NCBI GenBank assembly: GCA_037443025.1
Contig: JBBIPD010000002.1
Coordinates: forward strand, 1 to 37,720
Direction of reading: 5' to 3'
Source: Chloroflexota bacterium
GTDB lineage: Bacteria; Chloroflexota; Anaerolineae; Anaerolineales; UBA4823
Length of the DNA: 37,720 bases
Shown here: one piece after another, positions 9,975 to 35,391 of the stretch
Numbering within the stretch: the first letter of the stretch is position 1
Layout of the letters: each line of letters begins with the position of its first letter
Notes under the pieces: model-generated
What the model was told of the DNA's origin: nothing
Database searches by the model: none
The model's input: the letters and a program-made list of their open reading frames with translations, nothing else
Made by a program: the position numbers and the translations under genes

Positions 9975-12476
9975 TCAGGCTGCCGCCAACGCTTCGGTGG
10001 GCGGGGAAGACTGCTCTTCGCCGCGGCGCAGTGTGATGGCGCCGTCCACCACATCCACGATGATAACATCGCCGTCCTCGAACTCTCCGCCCAGCATGGC
10101 GTCGGAGAGCGGGTCTTCGACGGTCTGCTGGATAACCCGGCGCAAGGGGCGGGCGCCCATCTCCGGGTCGTACCCCATGTCTGCCAGCATTTCCAGCGCA
10201 GCAGGGGTGGCGGTCAGGGTGATGGCGTGGTCCTCCAGACGTCGCGCCACCTTATCCAGCTCAATCTGGACGATCTTCTGGATGTCGCTCTTGCTCAAAG
10301 AGCGGAAGACGATGACCGAATCCAGGCGGTTGATAAACTCGGGGCGGAAGACACGCTTGAGCGAGTCGAGCAGTTTCTTGCGCATGTCTTCATACGCCAG
10401 GCGTTCTTCCACCTCTTCGTCCTTCTTCAGGGCAAAACCGATGGATGTCTGGCGCTTGATCATATCTGCGCCCACGTTAGAGGTCATAACGATGATGGCG
10501 TTGCGGAAATCCACCTTGCGCCCGCGGGCATCCGAGAGGTGACCTTCTTCCATAATTTGCAAGAGCATATTGTGCGCTTCCGGGTGGGCTTTCTCAATCT
10601 CGTCAAAGACGACGATAGAGTAAGGGCGGCGGCGCAGCGCCTCGGTGAGCTGCCCGGCTTCTTCATAGCCAACATACCCCGGCGGGGCGCCGACCAGGCG
10701 GCTGACAGTATGGCGTTCCATGAACTCGGACATATCGAGCTGAATCAGGGCGTCTTCGCTGCCAAAGAGGAAGCGCGCCATGGCTTTGGTCAGCTCGGTC
10801 TTGCCGACGCCGGTGGGTCCGAGGAAGATGAAGGAGCCGATAGGGCGGCGGGGGTCTTTGAGACCGGCGCGCGCCCGGCGCACTGCCTTGGAAATCGCCT
10901 GGATGGCTTCTTCCTGACCGATGATATACTTGCGCAGTTCATCCTCCATCTGGAGCAGGCGCTGCGACTCCTCCTGGGCGATTTGCATGACCGGCACACC
11001 GGTCCACATCGAGACCACCTCGGCGATATCTTCAGCCGAGACCACCGGGCTGTTTGCCCTGTCCCAGCCGGTGCGCAGGCGCTCGAGCTGGCGCTCCAAA
11101 GCCTCCTGGCGCTCGAGGAAGTCCTGGGCGTCATCGTAACGGTTATCTTCCAGGGCAAGCTCGTGATTGGCGCGCACCTCGCGCAACTGCCGCATCAACT
11201 CTTTGGCGGTCTTGGCGGCGTCGCTCTTGTACATGCGCACCCGAGACGACGATTCATCAATCAGGTCAATCGCCTTATCGGGCAAGAAGCGTTCGGTGAC
11301 ATAACGGGCGGAGAGGTGCACCGCAGCGTCGAGGGCTTCGTCCGAGATGGTCAGACGGTGGTGCTCCTCATAGGCGCTGCGAATGCCGCGCAGGATCTCG
11401 ATGGCTTCCTCTTCGGTCGGCTCTTCGACCATGATTGGTTGAAAACGGCGTTCCAGGGCGGCGTCGCTTTCGATGTGCTTGCGGTATTCGTCCAGGGTGG
11501 TGGCGCCAATCACCTGCAGCTCGCCCCGCGAGAGGGCGGGCTTGAGGATGTTGGCGGCATCCACCGACGAACCGGCGGCTCCTGCCCCCACCAGCATGTG
11601 GACTTCGTCAATGAAGAGGATGGCGCCAGAGGCTTTGAGTTCATCAATGACCCGCTTAAGGCGTTCCTCGAACTGACCGCGATACATCGTTCCGGCGACC
11701 AGGGAACCCACGTCGAGTTGCAAGACGCGCTTGCCCAACAAAGGCGCGGGGACATCAGCGTCCACAATCCGTTGAGCCAAGCCTTCGACGATGGCGGTCT
11801 TGCCCACGCCTGGTTCGCCAATCAGGGCGGGGTTATTTTTGGTGCGCCGGGCTAATATCTGGATGACCCGCTCGATTTCCATCTGTCGCCCGATCACCGG
11901 GTCGAGCTTACCCTCCTCTGCCAGCGAGGTCAGGTCGGTGGCAAGCTGATCCACCATGGGCGTCTTGGCTTTCTGCTGCTCCTGGCGAGAGGTTTTCTGT
12001 TCAGTCGAGGCGGCGGTGCTGGTGCGCCTGGAAGCGCTGCTCTCCTGCAAAACCCGCCGGGTCTGGCGGCGAATCTGTTCGGGGGTGACCCCCATCTTGC
12101 GCAACACATCTAACGCCACGCCCTCGCCATGGCGAACCAATCCTAACAAAAGGTGTTCCGTACCGATATAATGATGCCCCAATCTGCGGGCTTCTTCAAC
12201 TGCGTATTCCAATACCTGTTGGGTGCCCGGCGAGAGGTCGAGCTTGCCTCCCCGGTATTGTCCCGTCCCGGTCATGCGCTCGACCATTTCCTGGACGCGC
12301 TCAACTTCCAACCCAAGCTCGCGCAACACGCGCCCGGCAACGCCTCCCTCCTCGCGAATCAAGCCGAGGAGCAGGTGTTCCGTGCCGATGTAGTTGTGAC
12401 GCATGCGTTCAGCTTCCTGATGAGCCAGGCTCAGCACCCTGCGCGCCCTCTGCGTAAAACGTTCCATGCCAGCCAA
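9975..12476 (-). CDS. clpC: ATP-dependent Clp protease ATP-binding subunit ClpC (class I AAA+)
   Basis: 833 aa. Duplicated Clp_N repeats ([10 protein letters not shown] twice), two P-loops GEPGVGKT and GPTGVGKT, and a middle coiled-coil. The TTG start at 12476 has AGGAGG 6 nt upstream; an alternative ATG is at 12467 ([12 protein letters not shown]). Confidence 0.93.
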
Positions 12477-12635
12477 GGCATACCTCCTAATTTGAAAAAC
12501 AATAATTCTTTGCTAACTTCTGAGTTTGATTATGAGACATATTGTCCCAATTGGATTCTACCAGAGATTGCCCGATGAAAAAGTGTTTTTAGCAATCAAA
12601 GGAGTAAGGTTAATACAATTCTTATGTATGGCAAA

Positions 12636-12658
12636 AGCGCACCCATAACAGGTGCGCT
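12636..12658 (-). terminator. rho-independent terminator downstream of rpsA
   Basis: AGCGCACC / GGTGCGCT 8-bp stem with a 7-nt loop, followed on the minus strand by TTTTGCC. Confidence 0.7.
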
Positions 12659-12698
12659 GCATATCTCGACTGATTACCCCGAGGGGGTTTGGCGGGGA

Positions 12699-14075
12699 TC
12701 AATCCGCCTGCTCTTCACCTTCTTCGGCAGGAGGAGATACCTGCTCTTCCTGCTCAGGCGCTTCAACTAACGAAGGCGGCTCTGTCTCGATAGTCGCTTC
12801 AACCGCCGGAGGCTCTTCTTTGCTCTCCATCACCTCTTCAACCACCTCTTCAACCTCTTCCGCCAGTTCCATTTTCCAATCCAGGTCGGAATAGGCGGCG
12901 GAGTCCACTTTGCGCAGACTCAAGCCAATCCGCCGGCGCTCAGGGTCAATCTTGATCACCCGCAGGGTGACCTCATCGCCTTCTTTCACAACCTCTTTAG
13001 GATGATTGATACGGTGCTCGCTCAGCTCGGAGATATGAATCAAGCCCTCCAGGTCATCATCCAGGCGGGCAAACGCCCCAAACTTGGTCAGGTGGGTGAC
13101 CTTTGCCTCGATCAATTGCCCTTCTTTTATATGCTCCACCCGCTTCAACCAGGGGTCGGGCTGCAACTGGCGGATGGAGAGCCCGATTCGCTTGCGTTCC
13201 TGGTCAATGCTGATGACTTTGACCTCAACTTCCTGCCCCACCTTGAGCACCTCGTTGGGGTGCTGAATCCGTTCCCAGGAGATTTCAGAGAGATGCACCA
13301 GCCCATCCGCCCCGTCAATATTGACGAAGGCGCCGAAATCCGCCACGCTGGTCACCCGACCCTTGCGCACATCGCCTTCTTTCAACTCTTCCAGGAGGCG
13401 ATCCTTCAATGTCTCACGGGTCTCTTGCAGAGCGGCGCGTTCGGATAAGATCAGGCGGCGTCGCTCGCGGTCCACCTCGATCACCCGCACCTGGATTGCA
13501 TCCCCCACCATCTTTCCCCAGCGCTGGTCGGGGGTATCGCCCGTGAGGCTGGCGCGCCTCAGCAGGCTGATTTGTGAAGCAGGGACAAACCCGCGTAAAC
13601 GCCCCAAAGGAACCAGCAGCCCCCCCTTGTTAAAGCCGATGATCTTGCTTTCGAACACCTTCGAAGATGCAAGAAGATCTTCGGCTTCCTGCCAATCTTT
13701 CTCCTCCCTGGCTCGCAAGTAGGAGAGGACGACATTGCCGTTGGCGTCTTCGGGGGTGAGCACATAAACCGGAATCTCTGCGCCGACAGAGAACGTAGCT
13801 CGCTCCTCGGCAGGGATTTGCTCGAACTCTCTGCCAGAGATGACGCCCTCAGATTTTGTGCCGACGCTGACCAGGATTTCATTCTCACCGATGGTGGCGA
13901 TGGTGCCAATGCGAATCTCGCCCTGCTTGGGAAAATCCAAACCCAAACCCTCTTCACTCAAGAGGGTTTCCATGGAGGCGTTCTCCTGGTTGGCTTTCGG
14001 TTCGGCTTGCTCACGATCTGCCTGGTTGTATTCGCTTTCCTCCCCCTGACCCTTTAGGACATCATTTTGATCCAT
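12699..14075 (-). CDS. rpsA: 30S ribosomal protein S1 (four S1/OB repeats, acidic C-terminal tail)
   Basis: 458 aa. Four repeated S1 motifs (for example G.V..V..FGAFV......GL.H.SE). Glu-rich tail EEVEEVVEEV...PAEEGEEQAD. Confidence 0.9.
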   Translation of the reverse strand: MDQNDVLKGQGEESEYNQADREQAEPKANQENASMETLLSEEGLGLDFPKQGEIRIGTIATIGENEILVSVGTKSEGVISGREFEQIPAEERATFSVGAEIPVYVLTPEDANGNVVLSYLRAREEKDWQEAEDLLASSKVFESKIIGFNKGGLLVPLGRLRGFVPASQISLLRRASLTGDTPDQRWGKMVGDAIQVRVIEVDRERRRLILSERAALQETRETLKDRLLEELKEGDVRKGRVTSVADFGAFVNIDGADGLVHLSEISWERIQHPNEVLKVGQEVEVKVISIDQERKRIGLSIRQLQPDPWLKRVEHIKEGQLIEAKVTHLTKFGAFARLDDDLEGLIHISELSEHRINHPKEVVKEGDEVTLRVIKIDPERRRIGLSLRKVDSAAYSDLDWKMELAEEVEEVVEEVMESKEEPPAVEATIETEPPSLVEAPEQEEQVSPPAEEGEEQAD

Positions 14076-14146
14076 ATAAAAACGAACTCCGAATTCGAAT
14101 AAGATATGGGCAACATTATAAAGCGGATAGACAATCTTTGCAACCT

Positions 14147-14175
14147 TTGTGATAAGATTGAGACTCGATTATAAT
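14147..14175 (+). promoter_or_regulatory. putative sigma70-type promoter for the chlI-like operon
   Basis: TTGTGA (14147-14152), a 17-nt spacer, then TATAAT (14170-14175), 18 nt upstream of the ATG at 14193. Confidence 0.45.
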
Positions 14176-14192
14176 CAAGATTGAGGAGTAAA

Positions 14193-15296
14193 ATGCCGCC
14201 AATTTATCCGTTTACGGCGATTGTTGGTCAGGAACGCATGAAGCGTGCTCTCGTTCTCAATGCGGTGGATCCGCGCATTGGGGGCGTACTGATTCGCGGG
14301 GAACGCGGCACGGCAAAATCAACTGCGGCGCGCGCTCTGGCGGCGTTGTTGCCTCGGGTGGCGGTGGTGAGCGACTGCCGCTTTAGCTGCGATCCAGACC
14401 GCCCCACGACCTGGTGCACCGAATGCCGTGAAAGGGTCGCCAGGGGTGAAAAGCTGCCGGTAGAACTGCGCACCACGCCGTTTGTCAATCTCCCTGTCTC
14501 CGCGACCGAGGATCGGGTGGTTGGTACCTTGGATATCGAGAAGGCGATTCAAAAAGGCGAGCGCCACTTCGAGCCGGGCGTCCTGGCTTCCGCCAACCGG
14601 GGGCTGCTGTATATTGACGAGGTCAACCTGCTGGATGATCACGTGGTGGACCTGCTGCTCGACTCGGCAGCCATGGGAATGAACATCGTCGAACGGGAGG
14701 GGATTTCTTTCTCCCACCCGGCGCGCTTTATCCTGGTAGGCACCATGAACCCTGAAGAGGGCGACCTGCGCCCCCAACTGCTCGACCGCTTTGCCCTCTC
14801 GGTGGAAATCCACGGCATTCGAGACGCCCGGGAGCGGGTCTTGATTATCGAACGCAACCTGGCATACGAAGCCGATCCCGACGCTTTTCGCGAACAATGG
14901 CTCCCCCAAGAAAACGAACTCTCGCGCCAGATTGAGCAAGCGCGCAATCTGATTGACCAGGTCAGATATTCTCGCCGCGATCTGCTTTCCATCGCTGCCC
15001 TGAGCGCCTCTCTCAATGTGGATGGACATCGCGCCGATTTGGTCATCTTAAAAACCGCCCGCGCCCACGCCGCATTTGAAGGACGAGATGCGATTACCGA
15101 TAGGGATATTGCCCTGGCGGCAGAACTGGCTCTGCCGCACCGTATCAAGCGTGGTCCTTTCTACCAGGCTGAAATCTCGATGGAAGATCTGCAGGAACGC
15201 ATCGAGCAATTGCAGGGCGCCACCTCAGCCGCAGGCGAACCGGAGATGGTTCCTGACGAGAGGCAAACCGAGAGTCGCGAAAAAAAAAAGAGGTGA
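14193..15296 (+). CDS. ChlI/BchI-type AAA+ ATPase (Mg-/Co-chelatase I-subunit family)
   Basis: Strong ChlI-like blocks: Walker A GERGTAKST, TEDRVVGTLDIEKAI, EPGVLASANRGLLYIDEVNLLDDHVVDLLLD, REGISFSHPARFILVGTMNPEEGDLRPQLLDRF, LNVDGHRADL. The ATG at 14193 follows GAGGAG; the tracked TTG at 14181 is probably not the start. Confidence 0.9.
   Translation: MPPIYPFTAIVGQERMKRALVLNAVDPRIGGVLIRGERGTAKSTAARALAALLPRVAVVSDCRFSCDPDRPTTWCTECRERVARGEKLPVELRTTPFVNLPVSATEDRVVGTLDIEKAIQKGERHFEPGVLASANRGLLYIDEVNLLDDHVVDLLLDSAAMGMNIVEREGISFSHPARFILVGTMNPEEGDLRPQLLDRFALSVEIHGIRDARERVLIIERNLAYEADPDAFREQWLPQENELSRQIEQARNLIDQVRYSRRDLLSIAALSASLNVDGHRADLVILKTARAHAAFEGRDAITDRDIALAAELALPHRIKRGPFYQAEISMEDLQERIEQLQGATSAAGEPEMVPDERQTESREKKKR
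15280..15290 (+). other. A10 homopolymer containing an in-frame A_AAA_AAG slippery heptamer, 4 nt upstream of the chlI-like stop
   Basis: Zero frame reads GAA AAA AAA AAG AGG TGA. The heptamer A AAA AAG occupies 15284-15290. The -1 frame is open from 15257 and is the vWA ORF frame. Confidence 0.9.
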
Positions 15297-16240
15297 GCCC
15301 AGAGATACGGGAAGAGGTCTCTGAGAAACTGCCCTCCGAGCCATCCGCCCAGAAAGTCTTCGACAGCGGGACAGCCAACTGGTGGGAAGGCGGCGAGAAG
15401 GTCAAAATTGGGCAGCCATTTGTCCCCCGCAAAATTGAAAACCCCTTAGATCGCATCACCCGCCGCCAGGGTGGGCGACGCTCGCACAGCCGCACCGATC
15501 GCAAGCGAGGGCGTTACATCCAGGCGCGCCCCTCTCCCGGCAAGGCTGACGACCTGGCTTTCGATGCCACCCTGCGGGCGGCGGCGCCTTTCCAAAAACA
15601 ACGCAGCGAACAACGCAAGCGAGTGGCATTTGCCATCCGCTCCGACGACTACCAAAAAAAGGTGCGGGTGAAGAAAACCGCCAATCTGGTGCTTTTTGTG
15701 GTTGACGCATCCTGGTCTATGGCGGTTGCGGAACGAATGACAGCCACCAAAGGGGCTATCCTGTCTTTGCTTACCGACGCCTATCAACGCCGAGACCGGG
15801 TAGGCTTGGTGGTATTCCAGAAAGACCGCGCCACATTGGTGCTGACCCCCACCAACTCAATTCAATTAGCGCAGCGCGCCCTGGCAGATATCCCCGTGGG
15901 CGGCAAGACTCCGCTCTCAGCCGGCTTATACCTGGCGCACCAGATCATCCAGAAAGAGCGCATCGTCCACCCGGATGTGATGCCCTTGATTATCCTCCTC
16001 ACCGATGGGGCGGGCAACGTCTCGATGACCAATCTGCCTCCCCAGGAGGAGGCTCACCGGATTGCAGAAAGCATCGCCGAAGATGATATCCGCTGTGTGG
16101 TGATCAACATGGAACACGCTGCTTTCGATCAGGGTCTGGCGCAAAGCCTGGCAGATCATCTGAAGGCGCCGTGTTATACCTTGAGCGAACTGAAAGCCGA
16201 GGCGCTCTATCAACGCGTCCGCCAAGAAATGGCTTCATGA
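15293..16240 (+). CDS. vWA-domain protein equal to the C-terminal half of ChlD/BchD (linker plus MIDAS vWA), lacking its own AAA+ domain
   Basis: ChlD-like blocks GRR...RGRY, DLAFDATLRAAAPFQ, MIDAS VVDASWSM, GGKTPL and LTDGAGN. Only a GTG start overlapping the upstream stop (GTGA), with no spaced SD. No internal Met before the vWA core. Confidence 0.85.
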   Translation: MSPEIREEVSEKLPSEPSAQKVFDSGTANWWEGGEKVKIGQPFVPRKIENPLDRITRRQGGRRSHSRTDRKRGRYIQARPSPGKADDLAFDATLRAAAPFQKQRSEQRKRVAFAIRSDDYQKKVRVKKTANLVLFVVDASWSMAVAERMTATKGAILSLLTDAYQRRDRVGLVVFQKDRATLVLTPTNSIQLAQRALADIPVGGKTPLSAGLYLAHQIIQKERIVHPDVMPLIILLTDGAGNVSMTNLPPQEEAHRIAESIAEDDIRCVVINMEHAAFDQGLAQSLADHLKAPCYTLSELKAEALYQRVRQEMAS

Positions 16241-16241
16241 A

Positions 16242-17405
16242 ATGCCCTCTCCAGCTATCCGCCTGAAAAGCTTTACCGAATCGGTTATCAACCAGATGAA
16301 CCTCCTTGCCGAAGAGCATGGGGCGATCAACCTGGCTTCCGGTTACCCGGATTTTGACCCGCCCGAGGAGCTGCTGAAAGCAGCGGAACAGGCGTTGCGC
16401 TCCGGTTTCAACCAATACGCCATCCCCTGGGGATCACCGCGCCTGCGCCAGGCGCTGGCAAGTAAGCTGGAACGGTTCATGGGGTTAGAGATAGACTCTG
16501 AAGCGCATCTGACGGTGACCTGCGGCGGCACCGAAGCGATGATTGCGGCGATCCTGGCGGTTTGCGACCCCGGCGACCGGGTGATCGTCTTTTCGCCTCG
16601 TTACGAGACCTATGGTCCGGATATGGAACTGGCAGGCGCTCAGCCGATATTTGTCCCCCTTCACCCTCCAGAGTTCAATTTCGACCCAACTGAACTGCGA
16701 CAGGCGTTCCAAAAAGGGGTGAAAGCCCTGGTGTTATGCAACCCATCCAATCCTTGTGGCAAAGTCTTCTCTCTTGATGAACTGAGACTGATTGGCGATC
16801 TTGCCCGAGAATACGACGCCTACCTGATCACCGATGAGGTCTATGAGCACATTGTCTATGAGCCTTATCATCATACTTATCTCGCCAGCCTGCCAGGTCT
16901 GTTTGAACGGGTCATTTCATGCAGCTCGCTCTCCAAGACCTACGCCATCACCGGCTGGCGGCTGGGTTATATCCTCGCCTCGGAGGAGATCACCCGGGCG
17001 GTGCGCAAGATACACGATTATCTGACCCTGGGAGCTGCCGCTCCTCTTCAGGAAGCTGCCGTCACAGCCCTGGGCTTCCCCGATTCTTATTATCATCAAT
17101 TGCAGGTCGAGTACACCCAGCGCCGCGATTTGTTTTTCAGCCTCCTGGATGAAGCGGGGCTGGAATATCTTCGACCACAGGGGGCGTATTTTACTCTGGT
17201 GGATATCTCTCGACTGCCATTCAAGGATGACACTTCCTTCTGCTATTGGCTGGCGGAACAGGTTGGGGTCGCCGGTGTGCCCGGTTCATATTTTTTCAAT
17301 GAGCCTATTCAACACTATGTGCGCCTGAACTTTGCCAAGAGCCTCCCCACGCTGACCGAGGCGGGGCTGCGCCTGGGTAAACTTCATCAAAAACTTCCGC
17401 GTTAG
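16242..17405 (+). CDS. class-I PLP aminotransferase (YbdL/kynurenine-methionine aminotransferase-like)
   Basis: 387 aa. N-terminus INLASGYPDF, then NPSNPCGK, and PLP-lysine motif SLSKTYAITGWRLGY. Starts 1 nt after the vWA stop. Confidence 0.88.
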   Translation: MPSPAIRLKSFTESVINQMNLLAEEHGAINLASGYPDFDPPEELLKAAEQALRSGFNQYAIPWGSPRLRQALASKLERFMGLEIDSEAHLTVTCGGTEAMIAAILAVCDPGDRVIVFSPRYETYGPDMELAGAQPIFVPLHPPEFNFDPTELRQAFQKGVKALVLCNPSNPCGKVFSLDELRLIGDLAREYDAYLITDEVYEHIVYEPYHHTYLASLPGLFERVISCSSLSKTYAITGWRLGYILASEEITRAVRKIHDYLTLGAAAPLQEAAVTALGFPDSYYHQLQVEYTQRRDLFFSLLDEAGLEYLRPQGAYFTLVDISRLPFKDDTSFCYWLAEQVGVAGVPGSYFFNEPIQHYVRLNFAKSLPTLTEAGLRLGKLHQKLPR

Positions 17406-17413
17406 ACCCAACA

Positions 17414-18943
17414 ATGCCTCGCTTGCTCGTCATCCCCCTGATTTTCTGCCTGATGACGACAGGGCTGGTTTCCTGCGCCACAGGCTGGGGTGAAACCCAG
17501 ATAGCAAATCAAGAAAACCCGAGCAAGACGCAACCCATCCTGGCAACTCCGTCTCCCGCGCCGACATTGACTCAACCAACACAGCCGAAGACTCCCCCGC
17601 CGGCGTTGGATGCTACCCCTCCCCCAACCGAGAACGAGAGCCTGCCCATCCCGCTCTACCAGCTCACAGCAGCGTTGAATTATAACCAGCACTACCTCGC
17701 AGTTGACGAAAAGATCCGCTACACCAACCGTCAAGCCGAGCCGTTGACCGACCTGCGCCTGATGGTTGACCCCCTGTATTATCCGGGCGTATTCAACCTC
17801 AAGAGCATGTATTGGGGAGACAACCAGCCCGTGGCTGATTATCAAATCGAACCCGGGCAAATCTCGATTAACTTGCCTCAACCATTGCCGCCAGGGGAAT
17901 ATCTCGAACTTTCTCTCAATTACGAATTATTCATGCCCTCTCCCCAACCCTCAGTCGAAGTGCGCCCCATTCCCTTTGGATACACGGCGCGTCAGATAAA
18001 CTTTGTGGACTGGTATCCCTTTATTCCGCCCTATATTCCCGGCACAGGCTGGCTGGCGCACCGGGCGGGTTTCTTTGGCGAACATCTGGTTTATGAAATC
18101 GCCGACTTTGAGGTCAATATCCACCTGAGCGAAGCCACGCCAGAGGTCATTCTGGCAGCCAGCGCTCCCGCCCTTCGAGATGGAGAGTGGTATCGCTACC
18201 AACACAAAGCGGCGCGCAATTTTGCCTGGTCTGCCAGCCCCGATTACCAGGTGTACACCGCCAAAGTAGGGGAGACAACAATCCAAAGCTACACCTTTCC
18301 CTATCACGCAGCCGCCGGACAGGCAGCTTTGGAGACAACCGCCGAAGCGCTAACCCTCTTCAGTGATTTGTATGGCGCTTATCCCAGATCGCTTCTCTCG
18401 GTCGTGGAAGCCGATTTTCTCGACGGTATGGAATATGATGGTCTGTATTTTTTAAGCAACGGTTTTTACAACCTTTACCAGGGCACTCCAGGAGAATACC
18501 TGGCGGCTATCGCCGCCCATGAGACAGCTCACCAATGGTTCTACGCCCTTGTGGCTAACGATCAGGCGCTTGAGCCCTGGTTGGATGAGGCGCTTTGCAC
18601 TTATCATGAGCACATCTACTACGAAAAACTCCATCCCGAAGCGTTAGATTGGTGGTGGACATATCGCGTTAATTATTACCAGCCTCGCGGCTGGGTGGAT
18701 GGAAGCATCTACAACCCCGAGGGATATCGCGCTTATCGGGATGCGGTCTATCTGAACGGAGCCAGATTTCTGGAAGAACTGCGCTCTGAGATTGGGGATA
18801 ATACTTTCTTTGCCTTCCTATCCGATTATGTCAACCAGACCAAAGGACAAATTGCGACGGCTGAGATATTTTTTGATATTCTCAACCAACACACCACGGT
18901 AGATTTATCTGAATTGGTAGGAACGTATTTTGAGTCCCGTTGA
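17414..18943 (+). CDS. lipoprotein M1-family (gluzincin) metallopeptidase
   Basis: HETAH-X18-E zinc motif (HETAHQWFYALVANDQALEPWLDE). Lipobox LVSC in the signal peptide MPRLLVIPLIFCLMTTGLVSC, followed by a Pro/Thr-rich tether. Starts 8 nt after the aminotransferase stop. Confidence 0.8.
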   Translation: MPRLLVIPLIFCLMTTGLVSCATGWGETQIANQENPSKTQPILATPSPAPTLTQPTQPKTPPPALDATPPPTENESLPIPLYQLTAALNYNQHYLAVDEKIRYTNRQAEPLTDLRLMVDPLYYPGVFNLKSMYWGDNQPVADYQIEPGQISINLPQPLPPGEYLELSLNYELFMPSPQPSVEVRPIPFGYTARQINFVDWYPFIPPYIPGTGWLAHRAGFFGEHLVYEIADFEVNIHLSEATPEVILAASAPALRDGEWYRYQHKAARNFAWSASPDYQVYTAKVGETTIQSYTFPYHAAAGQAALETTAEALTLFSDLYGAYPRSLLSVVEADFLDGMEYDGLYFLSNGFYNLYQGTPGEYLAAIAAHETAHQWFYALVANDQALEPWLDEALCTYHEHIYYEKLHPEALDWWWTYRVNYYQPRGWVDGSIYNPEGYRAYRDAVYLNGARFLEELRSEIGDNTFFAFLSDYVNQTKGQIATAEIFFDILNQHTTVDLSELVGTYFESR

Positions 18944-19108
18944 GGTCTGGATTTGTTGATGGGATAATAGATGTCAGGACTCTTATAAGTTAATTATCGT
19001 CGTCGTAGTAGAGGCTGTGGATATGTGGAGAACCCCAAGATGGGGAGAAATGAACCTGAGATATGGGGTATCCATCGGCTCGATTACCCAGATAAGGGGG
19101 GATTTTTA

Positions 19109-19147
19109 ATAAAAAGTATCCCTGTCGCTGTGGGGATAAAAAGTATC
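19109..19147 (+). repeat. AT-rich 12-mer direct repeat ATAAAAAGTATC x2 (possible unwinding-element repeats)
   Basis: Identical copies at 19109-19120 and 19136-19147, flanking the TGGGGATAA box. Embedded in GATTTTTAATAAAAAG. Confidence 0.6.
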
Positions 19148-19282
19148 AAAACAGATATGAAAATAACATCTCATCACCAATCCGGTTATGTGGGAGACCC
19201 ATATCTCTGACCCCCATATATAGGGGGTAGGCAAAAATTAATATCTCGCACAAAAGAGCGAGTTTTCCCCAAAAGGGGAGAG

Positions 19283-19291
19283 TTATCCACA
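19283..19291 (+). promoter_or_regulatory. perfect consensus DnaA box TTATCCACA (within 13-nt repeat GAGTTATCCACAG)
   Basis: Exact 9/9 match to the consensus. The repeat unit GAGTTATCCACAG occupies 19280-19292. Confidence 0.75.
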
Positions 19292-19303
19292 GAAATCCGC
19301 GAG

Positions 19304-19312
19304 TTATCCACA
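19304..19312 (+). promoter_or_regulatory. perfect consensus DnaA box TTATCCACA (second copy, 21 bp from the first)
   Basis: Exact 9/9 match. GAGTTATCCACAG is repeated at 19301-19313, same orientation, two helical turns from the first copy. Confidence 0.75.
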
Positions 19313-19389
19313 GTATTTCGTCTTCACCTCAGATAAATAGATTTTGTTGTGCTTCCATATATTGGGGTACCAGAAACTGAAATTGGTAC

Positions 19390-19417
19390 TTGACAAAACA
19401 GGGAGTTAGACTATAAT
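19390..19417 (+). promoter_or_regulatory. near-consensus sigma70 promoter for small-ORF/arsR/MFS operon
   Basis: TTGACA (19390-19395), a 16-nt spacer, then TATAAT (19412-19417). Confidence 0.65.
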
Positions 19418-19443
19418 CTAATTAGACGAATATCTAATTTAGA
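19417..19443 (+). promoter_or_regulatory. two palindromic operator-like sites TCTAATTAGA and TCTAATTTAGA
   Basis: Perfect palindromes at 19417-19426 (5+5) and 19433-19443 (5-1-5). Both are preceded by A and followed by C. They overlap the -10 and transcription-start region. A third TTAGAC half-site is at 19406-19411. Confidence 0.55.
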
Positions 19444-19457
19444 CCGGTATCTACTGG

Positions 19458-19691
19458 ATGGAGGAAGCAATGAACGATAGGGATTTGTTCTTGGCTCAGC
19501 AATACCAGCGCGAACTGCTGGAAAAAGCCAACCAGGCTCGGTTGATCCGGGCGTCCAGAAATGGTTCCCAGCCAAATCTGTGGGATTATGCCCTGTTGCG
19601 CGCTGGCGATGCTTTGATTTCCCTGGGTGAAAAGATTCGCTCCGCCAGTGATTACCAGAAACTGTCTGACCTGTCAAAGGAATGCGCATGA
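19458..19691 (+). CDS. small hypothetical protein (73-77 aa), helical charged N-terminus and hydrophobic C-half
   Basis: ORF with GGAGGA just upstream of the alternative ATG at 19470 (MNDRDLFLAQQYQRELLEKANQARLIR...). Its stop overlaps the arsR-like start (ATGA at 19688-19691). Confidence 0.55.
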   Translation: MEEAMNDRDLFLAQQYQRELLEKANQARLIRASRNGSQPNLWDYALLRAGDALISLGEKIRSASDYQKLSDLSKECA

Positions 19692-20809
19692 ATAGCGCCG
19701 AACTCGGTCAAGGGTCAAGCGAAGTCGAAACAGGCGAAAGCAAAACGCCGCGCCTGGTCTGGGACATTGGGACTGCCTACGATTTCTTCTTGAGCCTGGA
19801 GGTGCTTCACCATCCTGAAGATTACGGATTGCGGGCGTCCTGGGCGGCGGGCGTGCGCTCGCGCCTGCCGCCTTCCGAGAGGAAGCTGCTCGAGGAGATA
19901 CAGGATTTTTTATGGCTGCCGATGCACTGGATTCACAACCTGCCCGCGCCCAAGGATGCCGCCAGCGTGATATGGGCTTTGCGGCAGATGCCGCCAATAG
20001 AACGACCGGTCAGGTTGGTTAACCCCTACGAGACCGATGAGAAGATTAATGAAACCATGAGCGGGGTGGTCGAGCGGCGCACATGGGATAAACACGATTT
20101 GGATGTGTTCCGGGCTATGCTTAATGAGCATAAGAAGGGGCACCTGGCTAAGAACCTCCCCGCTTTGTTGGATTGGTGGACGCGTCCCGAAGAGATGGGA
20201 GAGCTTTATCTCTCAGCCCTTGAGTCTTATTACAAAAGTTTCTTTGCCGAAGAGGAGAAGCGGATCATGCCGGTGCTGCGCCAGGGTTTAGAACGGGCGC
20301 AGGCGTTGGCGCAACAGATGGCTTTGCCAGACCTGCTGGCAGAGCTCTCGCAAGGGGTGCATTTCGAAAAACCATTGGAGATTGATGAGCTGGTGCTCGT
20401 GCCGGGATATTGGAACACGCCTTTGATCGTCTTTCCGATGATCGGTCCCAAAAGTATGCTGTTCATGTTCGGCGTCCGTCCTCCTGAGATGTCGCTGGTG
20501 CCTGGCGAACCTGTGCCAGACACCCTGTTGCGTGTTTTGAAAGCCATTGCCGATCCTACCCGCTTGCGCATCCTGCATTACCTCAGCCAGGGAAAGCTGA
20601 CCCCAGCCCAACTTTCCCGAAAGCTGCGCTTGCGCGCCCCAACCGTGACCCACCACCTGAGCGCACTGCGTTTGGCAGGGTTGGTGCATGTGAGCCTGGA
20701 AAGCAGCGGCGAGAGATGCTACACCGCTCGCCTGGAGGCTATCCAATCCATGTGCGCCACGTTGCAAAGTTATCTCTCAAGTGATTTGGATAAGGGTGAG
20801 GGGGAGTAA
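19682..20809 (+). CDS. ArsR/SmtB-family winged-HTH regulator with a ~270-aa N-terminal domain of unknown function
   Basis: C-terminal LLRVLKAIADPTRLRILHYLSQGKLTPAQLSRKLRLRAPTVTHHLSALRLAGLV is a canonical ArsR HTH. The N-terminal domain was not recognised, though the architecture recalls DUF5937-HTH fusions (from memory, unverified). Alternative start ATG at 19688. Confidence 0.8.
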   Translation: MRMNSAELGQGSSEVETGESKTPRLVWDIGTAYDFFLSLEVLHHPEDYGLRASWAAGVRSRLPPSERKLLEEIQDFLWLPMHWIHNLPAPKDAASVIWALRQMPPIERPVRLVNPYETDEKINETMSGVVERRTWDKHDLDVFRAMLNEHKKGHLAKNLPALLDWWTRPEEMGELYLSALESYYKSFFAEEEKRIMPVLRQGLERAQALAQQMALPDLLAELSQGVHFEKPLEIDELVLVPGYWNTPLIVFPMIGPKSMLFMFGVRPPEMSLVPGEPVPDTLLRVLKAIADPTRLRILHYLSQGKLTPAQLSRKLRLRAPTVTHHLSALRLAGLVHVSLESSGERCYTARLEAIQSMCATLQSYLSSDLDKGEGE

Positions 20810-24162: not shown

Positions 24163-24248
<86 letters not shown>

Positions 24249-28016: not shown

Positions 28017-28298
28017 TTTTTAACCCTAAGGGCAGTCAACCCCTACCTATGACTGCAATAAACCTATCATAGGCATAGCTCCAAATAATATTTGGCATAA
28101 AAATTGCAACCCTCCATCTATCGCCAGGGTGTTCCTGGTCTTATTAACCTCCCGTATCTGGCAGGATTGACGCATCGGAGGGGTTACAGGTGGTTTTTGG
28201 ATTGAAAAGTGGAGAATCTGTCAAAATCGTTAGATTCATAGCGGCTGATTTCAGGTAAAATATGTATATAGTAGCCTGAATATTAGGAGGGAGAGGCT

Positions 28299-28448
28299 AT
28301 GATGGGGATTATTGTAATTCTGGTGCTTGCTCTTCTGTACCTGGCTTATATCAACCGGGAAAACAAGTTCAAAGAGATTGAACGCCAGCAAGCGCTGCGC
28401 CGCGCCGTGCTCAAGCTGAACGAGAAGAATCAGCGCTTCAGCCATTAA
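28299..28448 (+). CDS. small membrane protein (49 aa), below the ORF-track length cutoff
   Basis: ATG at 28299 is preceded by AGGAGGGAG (28286-28294). Translation MMGIIVILVLALLYLAYINRENKFKEIERQQALRRAVLKLNEKNQRFSH has one TM helix and a basic amphipathic tail. The tracked antisense ORF 28251-28445 is probably spurious. Confidence 0.55.
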   Translation: MMGIIVILVLALLYLAYINRENKFKEIERQQALRRAVLKLNEKNQRFSH

Positions 28449-28712
28449 CCCGGCTTCAATTCAGAGAAATCTGGCTTAACCTGAGCCACGGTTGCCGGAA
28501 GGTGACCGTCGGCAATGGTTTGGTCTCTTTATGGCGTATTGCAAGGGGTAAACGCTTATTTCAGGCTGGGAGAAATGCGCGGAAAATGAACCATCCCCGA
28601 ACGTGGAAATATCCAGTTCGCTGTTGCGCCTTGCGCCAATCGCTGGTATGCTTAAGATGGATAAGACAAATCGGTTTGATTAGAATATCATCCTGCAACG
28701 GGCTGACCCATC

Positions 28713-29378
28713 ATGTATATTGCCATCGAAGGCGTTATTGGCGTTGGAAAAACCACCCTGGCGCGCCTGCTGCAACCGGCGTTTCAGGCTGAATTGTTGT
28801 TGGAGGTCTTTGAGGAGAATCCCTTCCTTTCAGACTTCTACGCTGATCGGGAGCGCTACGCGTTTCAGACGCAGATATTCTTCTTGCTCAGTCGCTATTA
28901 TCAACAGCGTCGGGCTGTGCCAAAAATACTGGAGGCGGGCGCTAACCTGCTGGCAGATTATACCTTTGAGAAAGACGCGTTGTTCGCCGGGATTAACCTG
29001 CGGGGTGATGAGTTGGAGATGTATCGCCGCGTCCATGAGGCGTTGGCGGAGAAAATCCCCTCGCCAGATCTGGTGGTCTACCTGCGGGCGGATACAGATG
29101 TGCTGATGCAACGCATCGCCTTGCGCGACCGACCATATGAGCGCAATATGGAGAGGGCATACATTGACGAACTCAACAAGGCGTATGATGAATTCTTCAT
29201 CGATCGCCGCCAGACAGACAAAGAGGGCAAGCCGCCAGTGTTGGTGATTGACACCAATCGCTTGGATTACGTGCGCGATGCGGAGAGCTTAAAGTGGGTG
29301 GAGAACCGCATCCGTCAGGCGTTGCGCCTGTCGCCATTTCAGGCGGAACTGCCTCTCGAGACGCAAGGGAGAGATTGA
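28713..29378 (+). CDS. deoxynucleoside kinase (dAK/dGK/dCK family)
   Basis: 221 aa. P-loop IAIEGVIGVGKTTLARLL, ERYAFQTQIFFL and a DR-type motif (IALRDRPYER). Confidence 0.85.
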   Translation: MYIAIEGVIGVGKTTLARLLQPAFQAELLLEVFEENPFLSDFYADRERYAFQTQIFFLLSRYYQQRRAVPKILEAGANLLADYTFEKDALFAGINLRGDELEMYRRVHEALAEKIPSPDLVVYLRADTDVLMQRIALRDRPYERNMERAYIDELNKAYDEFFIDRRQTDKEGKPPVLVIDTNRLDYVRDAESLKWVENRIRQALRLSPFQAELPLETQGRD

Positions 29379-29428
29379 TAGCAGAGGGAGAGCAGGCTCG
29401 GCGTCTGGCGAAGGAAGGTTGTTAATCT

Positions 29429-30433
29429 ATGCGCATTAATCGTCAGATATTGTTAAAAATTGCTCAAGACACTGTCGCCCAGCGCGCCCGCAAAGAGCGG
29501 GATATCGTCTCGGCATATCTGGTTGGATCGGTGTTAAGCGAAGATTATATTTTGGGCGGCACGGCGGACATTGACCTAGTCTTTGTTCACGCCGATTCCA
29601 CCCCAGAAGAGCGGGAAATTGTACGCCTGACCGACGAAGTCCACCTGGATATCGCCCATTATCCCCAGAAACATTATCGTCAGACGCGCCTCCTGCGAAG
29701 GCACCCCTGGCACGGACCGTCCATTTTTGGCTGCAAAGTGCTGTATGACCCGCAGCATTTCATGGATTTCACCCAAGCCAGCGTCCGGGGACAGTTTGAT
29801 CAGCCGGATAATGTGATAGATCGGGCGCGCCAGCAAGCCGAATCCGCCCGACAGACCTGGTTATCCTTTTATTCCGATGCGCCCAAACGGATTGGACCGA
29901 GAGATATCTATCAGTTTATCAAAGCCATCGCTCAGGCGGGCAACGCCGTCGCCAGTCTGTACGGCGCGCCGCTCACAGAACGTCGCTTTCTGCTTGCCTT
30001 CCGCCAGCGGGCTGAAGCCGCCGACAAGCTCAGTCTGTACCCCAAGGCGTTGGAGCTGTTAGGCGCTCCAAACGTGGAAAAAGAGGCTTTGCAGGTCTGG
30101 CTATCCGCCTGGCGGGTCTGCATCGAGAGCCTGCCGCCGGAAAGCGCCCCAGCCCGGCTCCATCCCGCTCGGATTCCTTATTACCTGCGGGCTTTTGAAC
30201 ATATCCTTGACGGCGATCAACCGATGGCGGTGTTGTACCCCCTGTTAAGCACCTGGACTCTGGCAGCCTGTCAGCTCCCTGAAGAGGCGGATGGGCTGGC
30301 TGCCTGGCAGAAGGCGTGTGCTTACCTGGGGTTTCTTGAGGCTGGCTTCAGCGAGCGCCTGGAGGCGTTGGACGCCTTTCTGGATGGAGTGGAAGAATCG
30401 CTGGACGAGTGGGCGCAGGCGAATGGAATCTGA
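29429..30433 (+). CDS. hypothetical protein with N-terminal Pol-beta-type nucleotidyltransferase motif and helical C-terminal domain
   Basis: 334 aa. GS-X12-DIDL (LVGSVLSEDYILGGTADIDLVFV) matches the minimal NTase signature. C-terminal ~200 aa helical and not recognised. Confidence 0.6.
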   Translation: MRINRQILLKIAQDTVAQRARKERDIVSAYLVGSVLSEDYILGGTADIDLVFVHADSTPEEREIVRLTDEVHLDIAHYPQKHYRQTRLLRRHPWHGPSIFGCKVLYDPQHFMDFTQASVRGQFDQPDNVIDRARQQAESARQTWLSFYSDAPKRIGPRDIYQFIKAIAQAGNAVASLYGAPLTERRFLLAFRQRAEAADKLSLYPKALELLGAPNVEKEALQVWLSAWRVCIESLPPESAPARLHPARIPYYLRAFEHILDGDQPMAVLYPLLSTWTLAACQLPEEADGLAAWQKACAYLGFLEAGFSERLEALDAFLDGVEESLDEWAQANGI

Positions 30434-30483: not shown

Positions 30484-30499
30484 TGTTTCACGTGAAACA
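30484..30499. other. parS centromere-like site (perfect 16-bp palindrome TGTTTCACGTGAAACA)
   Basis: Exact match to the chromosomal ParB/Spo0J parS consensus tGTTNCACGTGAAACa. Lies between convergent gene ends. Confidence 0.8.
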
Positions 30500-30529: not shown

Positions 30530-30545
30530 TGTTTCACGTGAAACC
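30530..30545. other. second parS site (TGTTTCACGTGAAACC, 15/16)
   Basis: The 14-bp palindromic core GTTTCACGTGAAAC is identical to the first site. Centre-to-centre spacing is 46 bp. Confidence 0.7.
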
Positions 30546-32383: not shown

Positions 32384-33157
32384 GTGAACGAGAATAATCT
32401 CCGAAAAATACTCGACGCTGTTCGTGCAGGGCAAATGCAGGTTGATGAGGCTGTCGAAACGTTGCGCATGCTGCCTTATGTGGAAATGGACTTTGCCAAG
32501 GTGGACCTGCATCGTTCCCTGGTCAAGGGTTTTCCTGAGGTGGTCTATTGCGAGGGCAAACAGGTAGATCATATTCTGGGCATTATGCGCACATTGACCG
32601 CCGGGGCAGGTCCGGTGCTGGCGACCCGCGCCAGCCCTGAGGTATTCGAAGCGGTTAAGGCGGTCATCCCGGGCGTGCGCTACCATGACCTGGCGCGAAT
32701 TATCGTTTATGAGCCGGAACCCTTGCCGAAGCGCTCGGGGACGATCCTCGTCGTCTCTGCGGGGACGGCTGATTTGCCCGTGGCGGAGGAGGCGGCTGTG
32801 ACGGCGGAGGTGATGGGCAACCCGGTTGACCGCGTGTACGATGTGGGCGTCTCTGGGTTGCACCGCCTTCTGGCGCACATTGAGCGAATTGCTCAAGCCA
32901 GCGTGCTCATCGTAGTGGCAGGCATGGAAGGCGCCCTGCCCAGCGTGGTCGGGGGGTTGACGCGCCGACCGGTGATTGCAGTCCCCACCAGCGTAGGGTA
33001 TGGCGCCAGTTTTGGCGGGTTGGCGGCGTTGCTCGCCATGCTCAACAGTTGCGCTTCCGGCGTGACTGTGGTCAATATTGACAACGGCTTCGGCGCGGCT
33101 TATGCTGCCAGCCTGATTAACGCGTTGAGGGACGAACGGGGCGGTTCTTCGGGATGA
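32384..33157 (+). CDS. larB: nickel-pincer cofactor biosynthesis protein LarB (PurE-like carboxylase/hydrolase)
   Basis: 257 aa. The N-terminal LRKILDAV..G....DEAVE.L pattern, D..R....G.PEVVYC.GK and the PurE-like VSAGTADLPVAEEA and VAGMEGALPSVV blocks are typical of LarB. Confidence 0.85.
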   Translation: MNENNLRKILDAVRAGQMQVDEAVETLRMLPYVEMDFAKVDLHRSLVKGFPEVVYCEGKQVDHILGIMRTLTAGAGPVLATRASPEVFEAVKAVIPGVRYHDLARIIVYEPEPLPKRSGTILVVSAGTADLPVAEEAAVTAEVMGNPVDRVYDVGVSGLHRLLAHIERIAQASVLIVVAGMEGALPSVVGGLTRRPVIAVPTSVGYGASFGGLAALLAMLNSCASGVTVVNIDNGFGAAYAASLINALRDERGGSSG

Positions 33158-34518
33158 AAACGCTTTATTTGGATTGCTTTGCCGGCATCAGCGGCGATAT
33201 GTTCCTGGGCGCGCTGATTGATGTGGGTCTGAGTCCCGAGGTGTTGATCGGAGAGCTGCGCAAACTTCCCCTGGAGGGATACCAGGTACACGTTTCCAGG
33301 ACGAGTAAACAGGGCATTCAGGCTGTCCAGTTTCGAGTGTTGCTGAGAGAAGAAGCTGGCGAACGGGTGGCGGACTCGGAATATGTGGAGCTTGACCAAC
33401 CCGGCGTTTTCCCTGACGAATCGAAAGGTGTCATCCACCAGAATCAGGAGCGCAGGCATACCGATTTGCCCCAAATTCTGGCGATCATTCATTCCAGCGC
33501 CCTGTACGAAAGGGTTAAGGACCTGTCGAGCCGGATTTTCACCCGCCTGGCGGAAGCCGAGGGGTTGGTTCATGGGTTGCCCATAGATGAGGTGTATTTT
33601 CATGAGGTGGGCGGGATAGATGCGATTGTGGATATTGTCGGCGCGGCGATTGGGATTGAGCAGCTTGGGATTGAGAGGGTGTATTCGTCATCGGTGCCGC
33701 TTGGTTCGGGTTTTATTCACAGCGAACACGGCACTTACCCCGTCCCCGCGCCGGCAACCGCTTATTTACTGCGCGGCGCCCCGACTTATACCAACCCGGT
33801 GAAAGGGGAGCTGGTGACGCCCACCGGGGCTGCCATCTTGACCACAATCGTCCAGGGTTATGGACCGATGCCCGAGATGCTGCTCCAGCAGGTGGGCTAT
33901 GGGGCTGGAACCCGCGAGCGCGATTACCCCAATGTGCTCAGGGTTTTTTTGGGCGAAAGCGAGTGGTCGCCGCGGCGTTCTGGGACCGAGGCGCGCCTCC
34001 CGCGCGCTCCCTTCCCTGAGCAACATCAGGCGCCTGTGGGCGAGGCGAGATACCACGAGGCGATGGCTGTGGTGATTGAAGCCAACATTGACGACATGAA
34101 CCCCCAGTTGTTTGAGAACTTGATGGACAGGCTGCTCGAGGCGGGGGCGTTGGATGTGCTGCTCATCCCGGCGCAGATGAAGAAAGGCAGACCCGGGGTA
34201 TTGCTCCATGTTTTGGCGTCACCGGCTTCTGTTGATGAGCTTCTGGCGATTATCTATGCCGAGTCCACCTCGATTGGAGCGCGCACATACCCTGTGACCA
34301 AACACATGCTCCAGCGCGAGACATTGGTGGTGGAGACACCCTACGGGATGGTGCGGGTGAAGGTCGCCCGGTTGGGTGAGAGGGTGGTCAATCTGGCTGC
34401 GGAGTACGAGGATATCCGGGAGGCGGCGCGGCGCTCGGGGGCAGCGTTGAAGGAGGTCATGGCGGAGGCGGTCGCGGTTGCCCGGCGGAGGTTGCAGGAT
34501 AGCCCACCACCAGACTGA
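33154..34518 (+). CDS. larC: nickel insertion protein LarC (DUF111 family), single unsplit ORF
   Basis: 454 aa. N-terminus MKTLYLDCFAGISGDMFLGALIDVG and HEVGGIDAIVDIVG are DUF111/LarC hallmarks. ATGA start/stop overlap with larB. Confidence 0.87.
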   Translation: MKTLYLDCFAGISGDMFLGALIDVGLSPEVLIGELRKLPLEGYQVHVSRTSKQGIQAVQFRVLLREEAGERVADSEYVELDQPGVFPDESKGVIHQNQERRHTDLPQILAIIHSSALYERVKDLSSRIFTRLAEAEGLVHGLPIDEVYFHEVGGIDAIVDIVGAAIGIEQLGIERVYSSSVPLGSGFIHSEHGTYPVPAPATAYLLRGAPTYTNPVKGELVTPTGAAILTTIVQGYGPMPEMLLQQVGYGAGTRERDYPNVLRVFLGESEWSPRRSGTEARLPRAPFPEQHQAPVGEARYHEAMAVVIEANIDDMNPQLFENLMDRLLEAGALDVLLIPAQMKKGRPGVLLHVLASPASVDELLAIIYAESTSIGARTYPVTKHMLQRETLVVETPYGMVRVKVARLGERVVNLAAEYEDIREAARRSGAALKEVMAEAVAVARRRLQDSPPPD

Positions 34519-34548
34519 ATATGATTCAGTGGAGCATTTTAGCCTACG

Positions 34549-35364: not shown

Positions 35365-35391
35365 AGCAAAGTTTTTATAACGGAGGTTATC

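Follow-up and report, generated by a model that had tools for sequence, protein, structure and literature searches.

The 514-bp non-coding gap at positions 18944-19457 of the stretch of Anaerolineales DNA analysed here (contig JBBIPD010000002.1, 37,720 nucleotides; hereafter the window) very probably holds the chromosomal replication origin (oriC) of this uncultured bacterium. The peptidase encoded beside the gap has named relatives that assign the window to an Anaerolineales (Chloroflexota) genome. Judged from its sequence, the origin would be DnaA-dependent and would run from about 18958 to 19312, perhaps to 19366. It lies between a secreted M1-family peptidase gene on the left (17414-18943, + strand) and, on the right, a small open reading frame (ORF), an ArsR-type regulator and an MFS transporter (from 19458/19471, + strand), rather than being flanked directly by dnaA and/or dnaN in the manner of a canonical oriC. 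Pfam scans of the 29 main ORFs of the window found neither gene (Bac_DnaA and DNA_pol3_beta domains), as a first-pass annotation of this DNA had stated, and place the nearest dnaA or dnaN more than 18 kb away on both sides of the gap. That annotation had put the gap forward as a candidate oriC unlinked to these genes, a proposal upheld by a complete unwinding core, a local switch in GC skew that is independent of gene strand, and an architecture kept in dozens of Anaerolineae species. Directly observed are the sequence elements and the degree to which they are conserved, a core identical with that of canonical origins, the local skew switch, and parS sites nearby. No published description of an oriC from the Anaerolineae or Chloroflexi was found in the literature searched, DoriC lying outside that search.

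Read on the minus strand from 19032 to 18958, the left part of the gap consists of two co-oriented DnaA boxes, a 4-bp GC spacer, the triplets CTA CTA CGA CGA CGA in frame, and an AT-rich stretch; on the plus strand, 18997-19032 reads TCG TCG TCG TAG TAG - AGGC - TGTGGATA - TGTGGAGAA. The proximal boxes P1 (ATATCCACA, 19016-19024) and P2 (TTCTCCACA, 19024-19032) both lie on the minus strand, match the consensus at eight of nine positions, and share one base, forming a tandem pair; in many relatives P2 is a perfect TTATCCACA. The spacer AGGC (19012-19015) separates the first box from the triplets, and a 4-bp, mostly G/C spacer occupies this place in every locus compared. Beyond it, the DnaA-trio array (TCGTCGTCGTAGTAG, 18997-19011, + strand) reads 3'-GAT GAT GCT GCT GCT-5' away from the boxes, and its plus strand is predicted to be bound as single-stranded DNA. 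This core, with its triplet repeat beside the tandem boxes, is the decisive feature of the locus, and was absent from the first-pass annotation.

Apart from the middle base of three triplets, these parts correspond to the basal unwinding system (BUS) of B. subtilis (Richardson 2016/2019; Pelliciari 2021, 2023), which comprises a box with no more than two mismatches, a GC cluster, a spacer of up to 16 bp (with its peak at 10-13 bp when measured from the better box), 3'-[G/A]A[T/A]-5' triplets and an AT-rich region (PMC8287927, PMC7561715, PMC6669920), the trios being 'preceded by a GC-cluster' (PMC7561715). In the window, TTCTCCACA and ATATCCACA, with one mismatch each, are followed on the minus strand by GCCT and CTA CTA, and the first trio stands 12 bp from P2, the better-conserved box, and 4 bp from P1, within the spacer range of 0-16 bp and its 10-13 bp peak. 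The orientation of the core, 5'-TTATCCACA-3' and then 5'-CTA-3' repeats, agrees with the C. difficile and Bacillus examples. Easily melted AT-rich DNA follows directly past the triplets: the predicted DNA unwinding element (18958-18996), where the duplex would open, starts 15 bp past the stop codon of the M1 peptidase. The 40-mer 18958-18997 has a duplex free energy of -44.0 kcal/mol against a window mean of -58.3 (sd 4.6), about 3 sd less stable, and is the sixth least stable site of the window; in a set of 41 Chloroflexota loci, the AT fraction is highest, at 0.75, in the 40 bp that adjoin TAG TAG on the side away from the boxes, against 0.5-0.6 elsewhere. The whole core block hardly varies even among relatives in which identity of the flanking peptidase falls to 59-87%.

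The core recurs far beyond this lineage. The pattern TAGTAG-N4-TGTGGATATGTGGA (20 fixed bases in 24 nt) was searched in one genome per species (GTDB representatives), where by our own arithmetic (596 Gb, both strands) chance would yield about one match, and it was found in at least 120 species. The locus counts that follow (70 non-Chloroflexota, 50 Chloroflexota) are among the matches listed; neighbouring dnaA and dnaN genes were identified by tblastn with B. subtilis DnaA and DnaN probes, and representative matches were confirmed by Pfam. Outside the Chloroflexota, in 59 of the 70 loci the boxes face dnaA and/or the trios face dnaN, both genes being present in 47, and these 59 include Bacillus, Sporosarcina, Clostridia, Thermus, Poribacteria, Acidobacteriota and Bdellovibrionota; most of the remaining 11 come from Bacteroidota/Rhodothermota or from very short contigs. 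The window array is in frame with, and positioned like, the TAG/TAA trios of these dnaA/dnaN-flanked origins, and since the latter follow the order dnaA, boxes, trios, dnaN, the window motif is the core of canonical chromosomal origins, in its canonical orientation. Among the Chloroflexota loci, dnaA is adjacent in only two of 50 (L055 and L062) and dnaN in none. Box P1 is fixed by the search pattern itself in the 120 scanned loci; it is also invariant in L001-L005, which were retrieved via the peptidase gene and so independently of that pattern.

The likeness to incC of B. subtilis (DnaA-box#6/#7, DnaA-trios and AT-rich DNA) extends to the tandem co-oriented boxes (TGTGGATA-TGTGGAnAA), the 4-bp GC spacer, the in-frame triplets starting from TAG TAG, and the AT-rich DNA; a Bacillus near B. 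subtilis (L123) reads TAG TAG AAG TAC TAG TAG GGCT TGTGGATA TGTGGATAA. Unlike incC, the window origin is not located between dnaA and dnaN, three of its five triplets are TCG, without the middle A on the bound strand, its distal box cluster is opposed and fixed about 260-280 bp away, and it has an additional, lineage-specific palindrome.

GC skew changes from negative to positive at the gap, independently of gene strand. Left of the origin it is -0.039 in plus-strand and -0.078 in minus-strand genes (at third codon positions, GC3, -0.096 and -0.023, respectively), and right of it +0.092 and +0.029 (GC3, +0.117 and +0.135). The cumulative GC-skew minimum falls at 18637, some 320 bp from the predicted unwinding site. 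In addition, the first-pass annotation had cited a divergence of gene orientation around the gap; this argument has to be cut back, as orientation switches at 14.1 kb, about 5 kb away, and four plus-strand genes (14181-18943) point towards the gap, which is why gene orientation is not used here as evidence for an origin. The skew of these four genes is negative, and they therefore lie left of the origin in spite of their direction, so that skew, not orientation, marks the switch. The skew minimum lies in the equivalent gap in L001, and in L002 about 550 bp to the left of it, within the peptidase gene. Of 30 Chloroflexota loci, 26 show a higher skew on the box side than on the trio side (binomial p = 6e-5); the same holds for all eight loci whose right flank is of the alternative type and for 36 of 37 loci belonging to other phyla. 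One sequence labelled 'chromosome: 2' (L067, OY760067.1) has a skew well beyond that of every other locus, at about +0.33 to either side of the motif.

Two parS sites had also been noted in the window, and both are confirmed: a perfect TGTTTCACGTGAAACA at 30484-30499, proximal to the origin, and a second site with one mismatch at 30530-30545, the pair lying about 11.5 kb from the origin. Counted per strand, four parS matches were obtained against 0.05 expected. No parS with up to two mismatches was found in the related 8-kb loci, and parS proximity is therefore established for the window only.

The window has 21 DnaA boxes with up to one mismatch, where shuffled sequence has 4.95 +/- 2.3 (0/100 shuffles reach 21), and seven of the 21 fall in 18550-19312; taking a cluster as at least three boxes within about 100 bp of each other, the gap, with at least seven in 300 bp, contains one. 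One-mismatch boxes are also enriched outside the origin (14, against about five expected for the whole window), and a third perfect TTATCCACA lies inside the Fe-ADH gene (35523-35531, - strand). High-affinity boxes clustered away from dnaA are likewise found in loci that titrate or recharge DnaA, such as datA/DARS of E. coli and the box clusters of B. subtilis, and a DnaA-titration or regulatory locus had been offered as the fallback reading of the gap. Such a locus would be a box cluster with no unwinding module, placed off the skew switch; here the box-spacer-triplet-AT-rich module and the local switch are both present, the core pattern matches that of canonical dnaA-dnaN origins, and the skew switch and parS proximity point to an origin. 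Neither a trio/AT-rich unwinding module nor a skew switch is known to have been described for datA/DARS or for the box clusters of B. subtilis. That the gap is a titrating or recharging cluster instead of an origin is accordingly most unlikely, and the fallback is not supported.

The remaining boxes of the predicted origin form a middle and a distal group. In the middle are the degenerate M1 (GTATCCCTG, 19116-19124, + strand), recognised from an alignment of 18 Anaerolineales origins and from the box map, and read as TTATCCCCA or TTATCCAC in relatives, and M2 (TTATCCCCA, 19131-19139, - strand), which matches at eight of nine positions. The distal group comprises two perfect TTATCCACA boxes, D1 (19283-19291) and D2 (19304-19312), both on the plus strand, 21 bp apart, opposed to P1 and P2, and each embedded in the repeat GAGTTATCCACAG; 20 bp upstream of them sits the weak D0 (TTTTCCCCA, 19263-19271, + strand), with seven of nine positions matching and conserved as AGTTTTCCCCA. 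The words on which the first-pass annotation was built were all located where it had placed them, namely the two perfect boxes in GAGTTATCCACAG, three boxes matching eight of nine positions, the two copies of ATAAAAAGTATC (19109 and 19136), and the inverted repeat GAGATATGGG (19058-19067) / CCCATATCTC (19198-19207). A second unwinding core beside the distal boxes was considered and rejected, there being no triplet register after D2 and no conservation of the sequence there in L001.

The same box layout is common to some 45 Chloroflexota loci whatever their flanking genes, L055 and L126-L129 among them. Relative to the first TAG of the pattern (window position 19006), it consists of proximal boxes at +10/+18, middle boxes at about +110/+125, and two or three opposed boxes near +256, +277 and +298. 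Where two perfect boxes are neighbours in the zone from +150 to +400, they are 21 bp apart in 33 of 50 cases across loci. The oriC of B. subtilis is likewise divided into proximal and distal box subregions (PMC6669920). Three Ktedonobacteraceae loci (L032, L039 and L056) have the same core followed by huge arrays of perfect boxes in alternating orientation, with up to about 40 boxes of no more than one mismatch in 800 bp in L039; neither dnaA nor dnaN was detected in the 6-8 kb blocks of these three loci.

The window neighbourhood, ClpC-RpsA-MoxR-VWA-aminotransferase-M1 peptidase / origin / ArsR-MFS-OsmC-GlgC-YchF, is found in 19 loci. In 13 others (context B; L010, L021, L035, L053, L061, L064, L075, L084, L086, L087, L095, L096 and L114) the box side of the origin is joined to two genes that in the window lie at 28.7-30.4 kb. 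These are homologues of a 334-aa ORF and of a deoxynucleoside kinase (28713-30433; beside the parS pair in the window), both inverted, and the left flanks of context B vary, including LepA and a lamin-tail-domain protein. The 334-aa protein (29429-30433, + strand) has an N-terminal GS...D.D nucleotidyltransferase-like motif, gave no Pfam or NCBIfam match, and is recurrent beside the origin or parS in this class. With the same inner layout between differing flanks, the cassette has been kept in at least three gene contexts. A further rearrangement is seen in L005, a relative of 77% identity, in which the Fe-ADH/HAD/LarC/LarB block of the window (32384-36636) follows the distal boxes on the right in inverted order (11900-16587) and still shows its former GC skew, which is now negative. 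The arrangement points to an inversion or translocation that was recent and one-sided, and whose breakpoint falls no more than about 100 bp from D2, between D2 and the promoter of the ArsR operon.

That promoter, TTGACA-16-TATAAT with TTAGAC..TCTAA repeats (19390-19437, + strand), serves the small-ORF/ArsR/MFS operon and is not part of the origin. Its sigma-70 elements (19390-19417) match the consensus at 12 of 12 positions and stand 78 bp to the right of D2, and DnaA is a known transcription factor; on these grounds the gap might be read as a DnaA-regulated promoter region for its flanking genes, either the ArsR/MFS operon or the M1 peptidase. The promoter is kept in L001 and L002 and is missing from loci with another right flank (L005 and context B), whereas the cassette is intact where the ArsR operon is absent or replaced, that is, in L005, the 13 context B species and a clade in which it is linked to dnaA. 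The boxes are therefore not tied to that operon, and the promoter reading is largely refuted by these changes of context; we regard it as extremely unlikely. The last 70 bp or so of the gap are the promoter/operator of the downstream ArsR operon. The proposal that the whole 514-bp gap is a candidate oriC therefore needs trimming by this ordinary promoter/operator at its right end.

The dnaA-linked clade, a sister group within the Anaerolineae, was retrieved by a DnaA homology search (L126, L128 and L129, like L055) and carries the same cassette 600-700 bp downstream of dnaA, in the absence of dnaN. Its core has 0-1 mismatch to the pattern (L055, L126, L128 and L129), and three distal boxes 20-21 bp apart lie about 280-320 bp from it; it differs from the window origin in this position and in having extra box clusters flanking dnaA. 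One such cluster, of four or five co-oriented boxes, is found about 500 bp upstream of dnaA (L126:9458-9512, L128:9503-9558, L129:9445-9499), and another directly after the dnaA stop codon, which suggests dnaA autoregulation or a bipartite origin. Given the cassette beside dnaA in this clade, the window locus is homologous to a dnaA-linked origin, and by sequence comparison the origin is taken to have been split from dnaA and dnaN by rearrangement. None of the closed contigs of relatives was among the best 120 matches of the DnaA homology search. In relatives, predicted origins lie at about 2,682,230 of ENA ERZ25039533 contig_12334, at 3,309,676 of CAWGZV010000002.1 and at 1,307,123 of OY760067.1.

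In E. coli oriC, the unwinding element is followed by a TGTGGATAA-oriented box, and an opposed strong box is present at the far end. Origins away from dnaA are well known (PMC10225481, PMC8287927), and that of E. coli, between mnmG/gidA and mioC and about 42 kb from dnaA, was likewise separated from it by rearrangement (PMC8287927, PMC10225481). The window origin differs in having neither GATC clusters nor 13-mers, and its Bacillus-type trio core is much clearer than that of E. coli, whose BUS score is weak (PMC8287927).

Several observations weigh against the window locus being the working oriC. The skew evidence is local, covering 37 kb here and 8-21 kb in relatives, rather than genome-wide, and the inverted right flank of L005 leaves that relative with no skew switch. 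The four genes at 14181-18943 would run head-on to a leftward fork. The AT-rich stretch is short and moderately unstable, with other promoters in the window being less stable. The canonical middle A is present in only two of the five triplets (TAG TAG, the rest being TCG), on account of which the strict (NAN)>=3 rule does not hold in this genome. Despite the TCG triplets, the 3-nt register and the count of five are retained, and TCG or TCT is frequent in Chloroflexota, occurring at the position adjoining TAG TAG in 21 of 49 loci. In the dnaA-dnaN origins of Thermus (L025, L049 and L102), CCG/TCG triplets are interleaved with TAG beside the same tandem boxes, and T/C-C-G triplets therefore do occur in origins of canonical position; the Thermus loci differ in retaining at least three consecutive TAG triplets as well as the dnaA-dnaN position. 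Deviant trios lacking the middle A were anticipated by the authors of the trio rule (PMC8287927). The TCG triplets thus lower strict membership of the BUS, and not the assignment as an origin.

A further point against this assignment is that dnaA of this genome lies outside the window, where another box cluster or a second origin may accompany it. The locus could then be a secondary or relic origin, descended from oriC, with the active origin elsewhere (for example, beside dnaA), or one of two origins. The sister clade, with its cassette beside dnaA and further box clusters upstream of that gene, lends this some support, and dual origins have reportedly been predicted in other bacteria in one study. 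Against it stand the local sign change of skew at this very locus, in the window and in most relatives, and the strong purifying selection on the core, the spacings and the AT peak across many species. Moreover, no genome appears twice among the at least 120 matches listed. A secondary or relic origin is on balance very unlikely, and a single origin in the gap remains the preferred reading.

A further element of the Anaerolineales origins is a palindrome of family consensus CCCCATATATGGGG, which occurs in the window as CCCCCATATATAGGGGG (19211-19227), a candidate factor site. A weaker copy, CCTGAGATATGGGG, lies at 19055-19068, with half-sites at 19086-19099 and 19198-19207 (some relatives have a good copy at about +49), and a third, weak copy, TTCCATATATTGGG, at 19353-19366, to the right of the distal boxes, has counterparts in relatives at +347 to +359. 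The CCCATAT/ATATGGGG words reported in the first-pass annotation are indeed present, and are copies of this palindrome. Of 34 loci in the two main contexts (A/B), 22 have it near +206 (range +175 to +218), and its density is 2.5 per kb inside origins against 0.005 per kb outside, a difference of about 500-fold. It occurs in just two of 71 non-Chloroflexota loci, and was not found in L055 or L062, in a scan that did not take in L126-L129. The distance from the palindrome to the last distal box is 91-92 bp in 15 of 23 loci and 81, 101-102 or 113 bp in the others, in steps of one helical turn. A hairpin or cruciform was considered and, tentatively, rejected: in variants such as CCCCAGATATGGGG the symmetry is lost but the runs of C and G are constant, pointing to a protein site, probably one for an accessory factor.

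New here are the substitution of TCG for TAG in three triplets and the origin-specific palindrome CCCCATATATGGGG at a fixed, helically phased position. It is possible, and suggested here only tentatively, that Anaerolineales origins represent a distinct variant, in which the core and an opposed trio of distal boxes at a fixed distance are combined with a 14-16 bp palindrome, CCCCATATATGGGG, that is essentially confined to origins, helically phased with the distal boxes, and bound by a lineage-specific initiation regulator or architectural protein, and in which DnaA accepts 3'-GCT-5' in place of 3'-GAT-5'.

Initiation at the window origin may be modelled as follows. DnaA would fill the distal boxes, both strong (19283 and 19304) and weak (19263), as well as those of the middle group and of the proximal tandem pair (19016-19032), and ATP-DnaA would oligomerise from the proximal pair onto the triplet array (18997-19011, + strand). 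The AT-rich stretch at 18958-18996 would open, the helicase would be loaded there, and forks would depart both ways. The opposed distal cluster, fixed about 260-280 bp away, would feed or brace the proximal complex by DNA looping, a role already proposed for the distal boxes in incC of B. subtilis, and the palindrome at 19211-19227 would probably position the accessory factor. We infer DnaA binding, unwinding and looping, together with the status of the locus as the sole active origin, from the features described above.

The TTAGAC-N7-TCTAA direct repeats overlap the TTGACA-16-TATAAT promoter upstream of a conserved 73-77-aa ORF (window 19390-19437 and 19458-20809), the end of which overlaps the start of a 375-aa protein with a C-terminal ArsR helix-turn-helix (HTH) and a weak DUF5937 match; small ORF, ArsR protein and MFS transporter are probably an autoregulated operon. 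A look-up of the ArsR-like protein gave no identical entry. The likelier start of the small ORF is ATG 19471, with GGAGG upstream, which agrees with the calling of a 73-aa homologue in L002. In the window, scans for Rfam families and tRNAs yielded only a tRNA-Leu (24163-24247), with no match in the gap, and an RNA reading of the gap was dropped. The gap had been described as the largest clearly AT-rich one of the window. The longest gap is 28017-28712 (696 bp, about 46% GC), but it contains a small ORF, 28300-28449, which has a GGAGG ribosome-binding site and would encode a hydrophobic product of 49 aa.

The general picture of bacterial initiation is unchanged by these findings. They place a replication origin for a large, mostly uncultured order, the Anaerolineales, where a dnaA-based search would miss it, with uses in genome orientation, growth-rate estimates from metagenome coverage, and analyses of strand bias. 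The 24-nt Bacillus-type core pattern is common to many phyla, and can serve directly to locate origins in fragmented assemblies. Beyond this, the origin-specific palindrome points to a candidate origin-binding factor, and the TCG triplets provide a natural test case for the published need of a middle adenine in the DnaA-trio; if 3'-GCT-5' is indeed accepted by DnaA in this order, this would bear on how DnaA reads single-stranded DNA.

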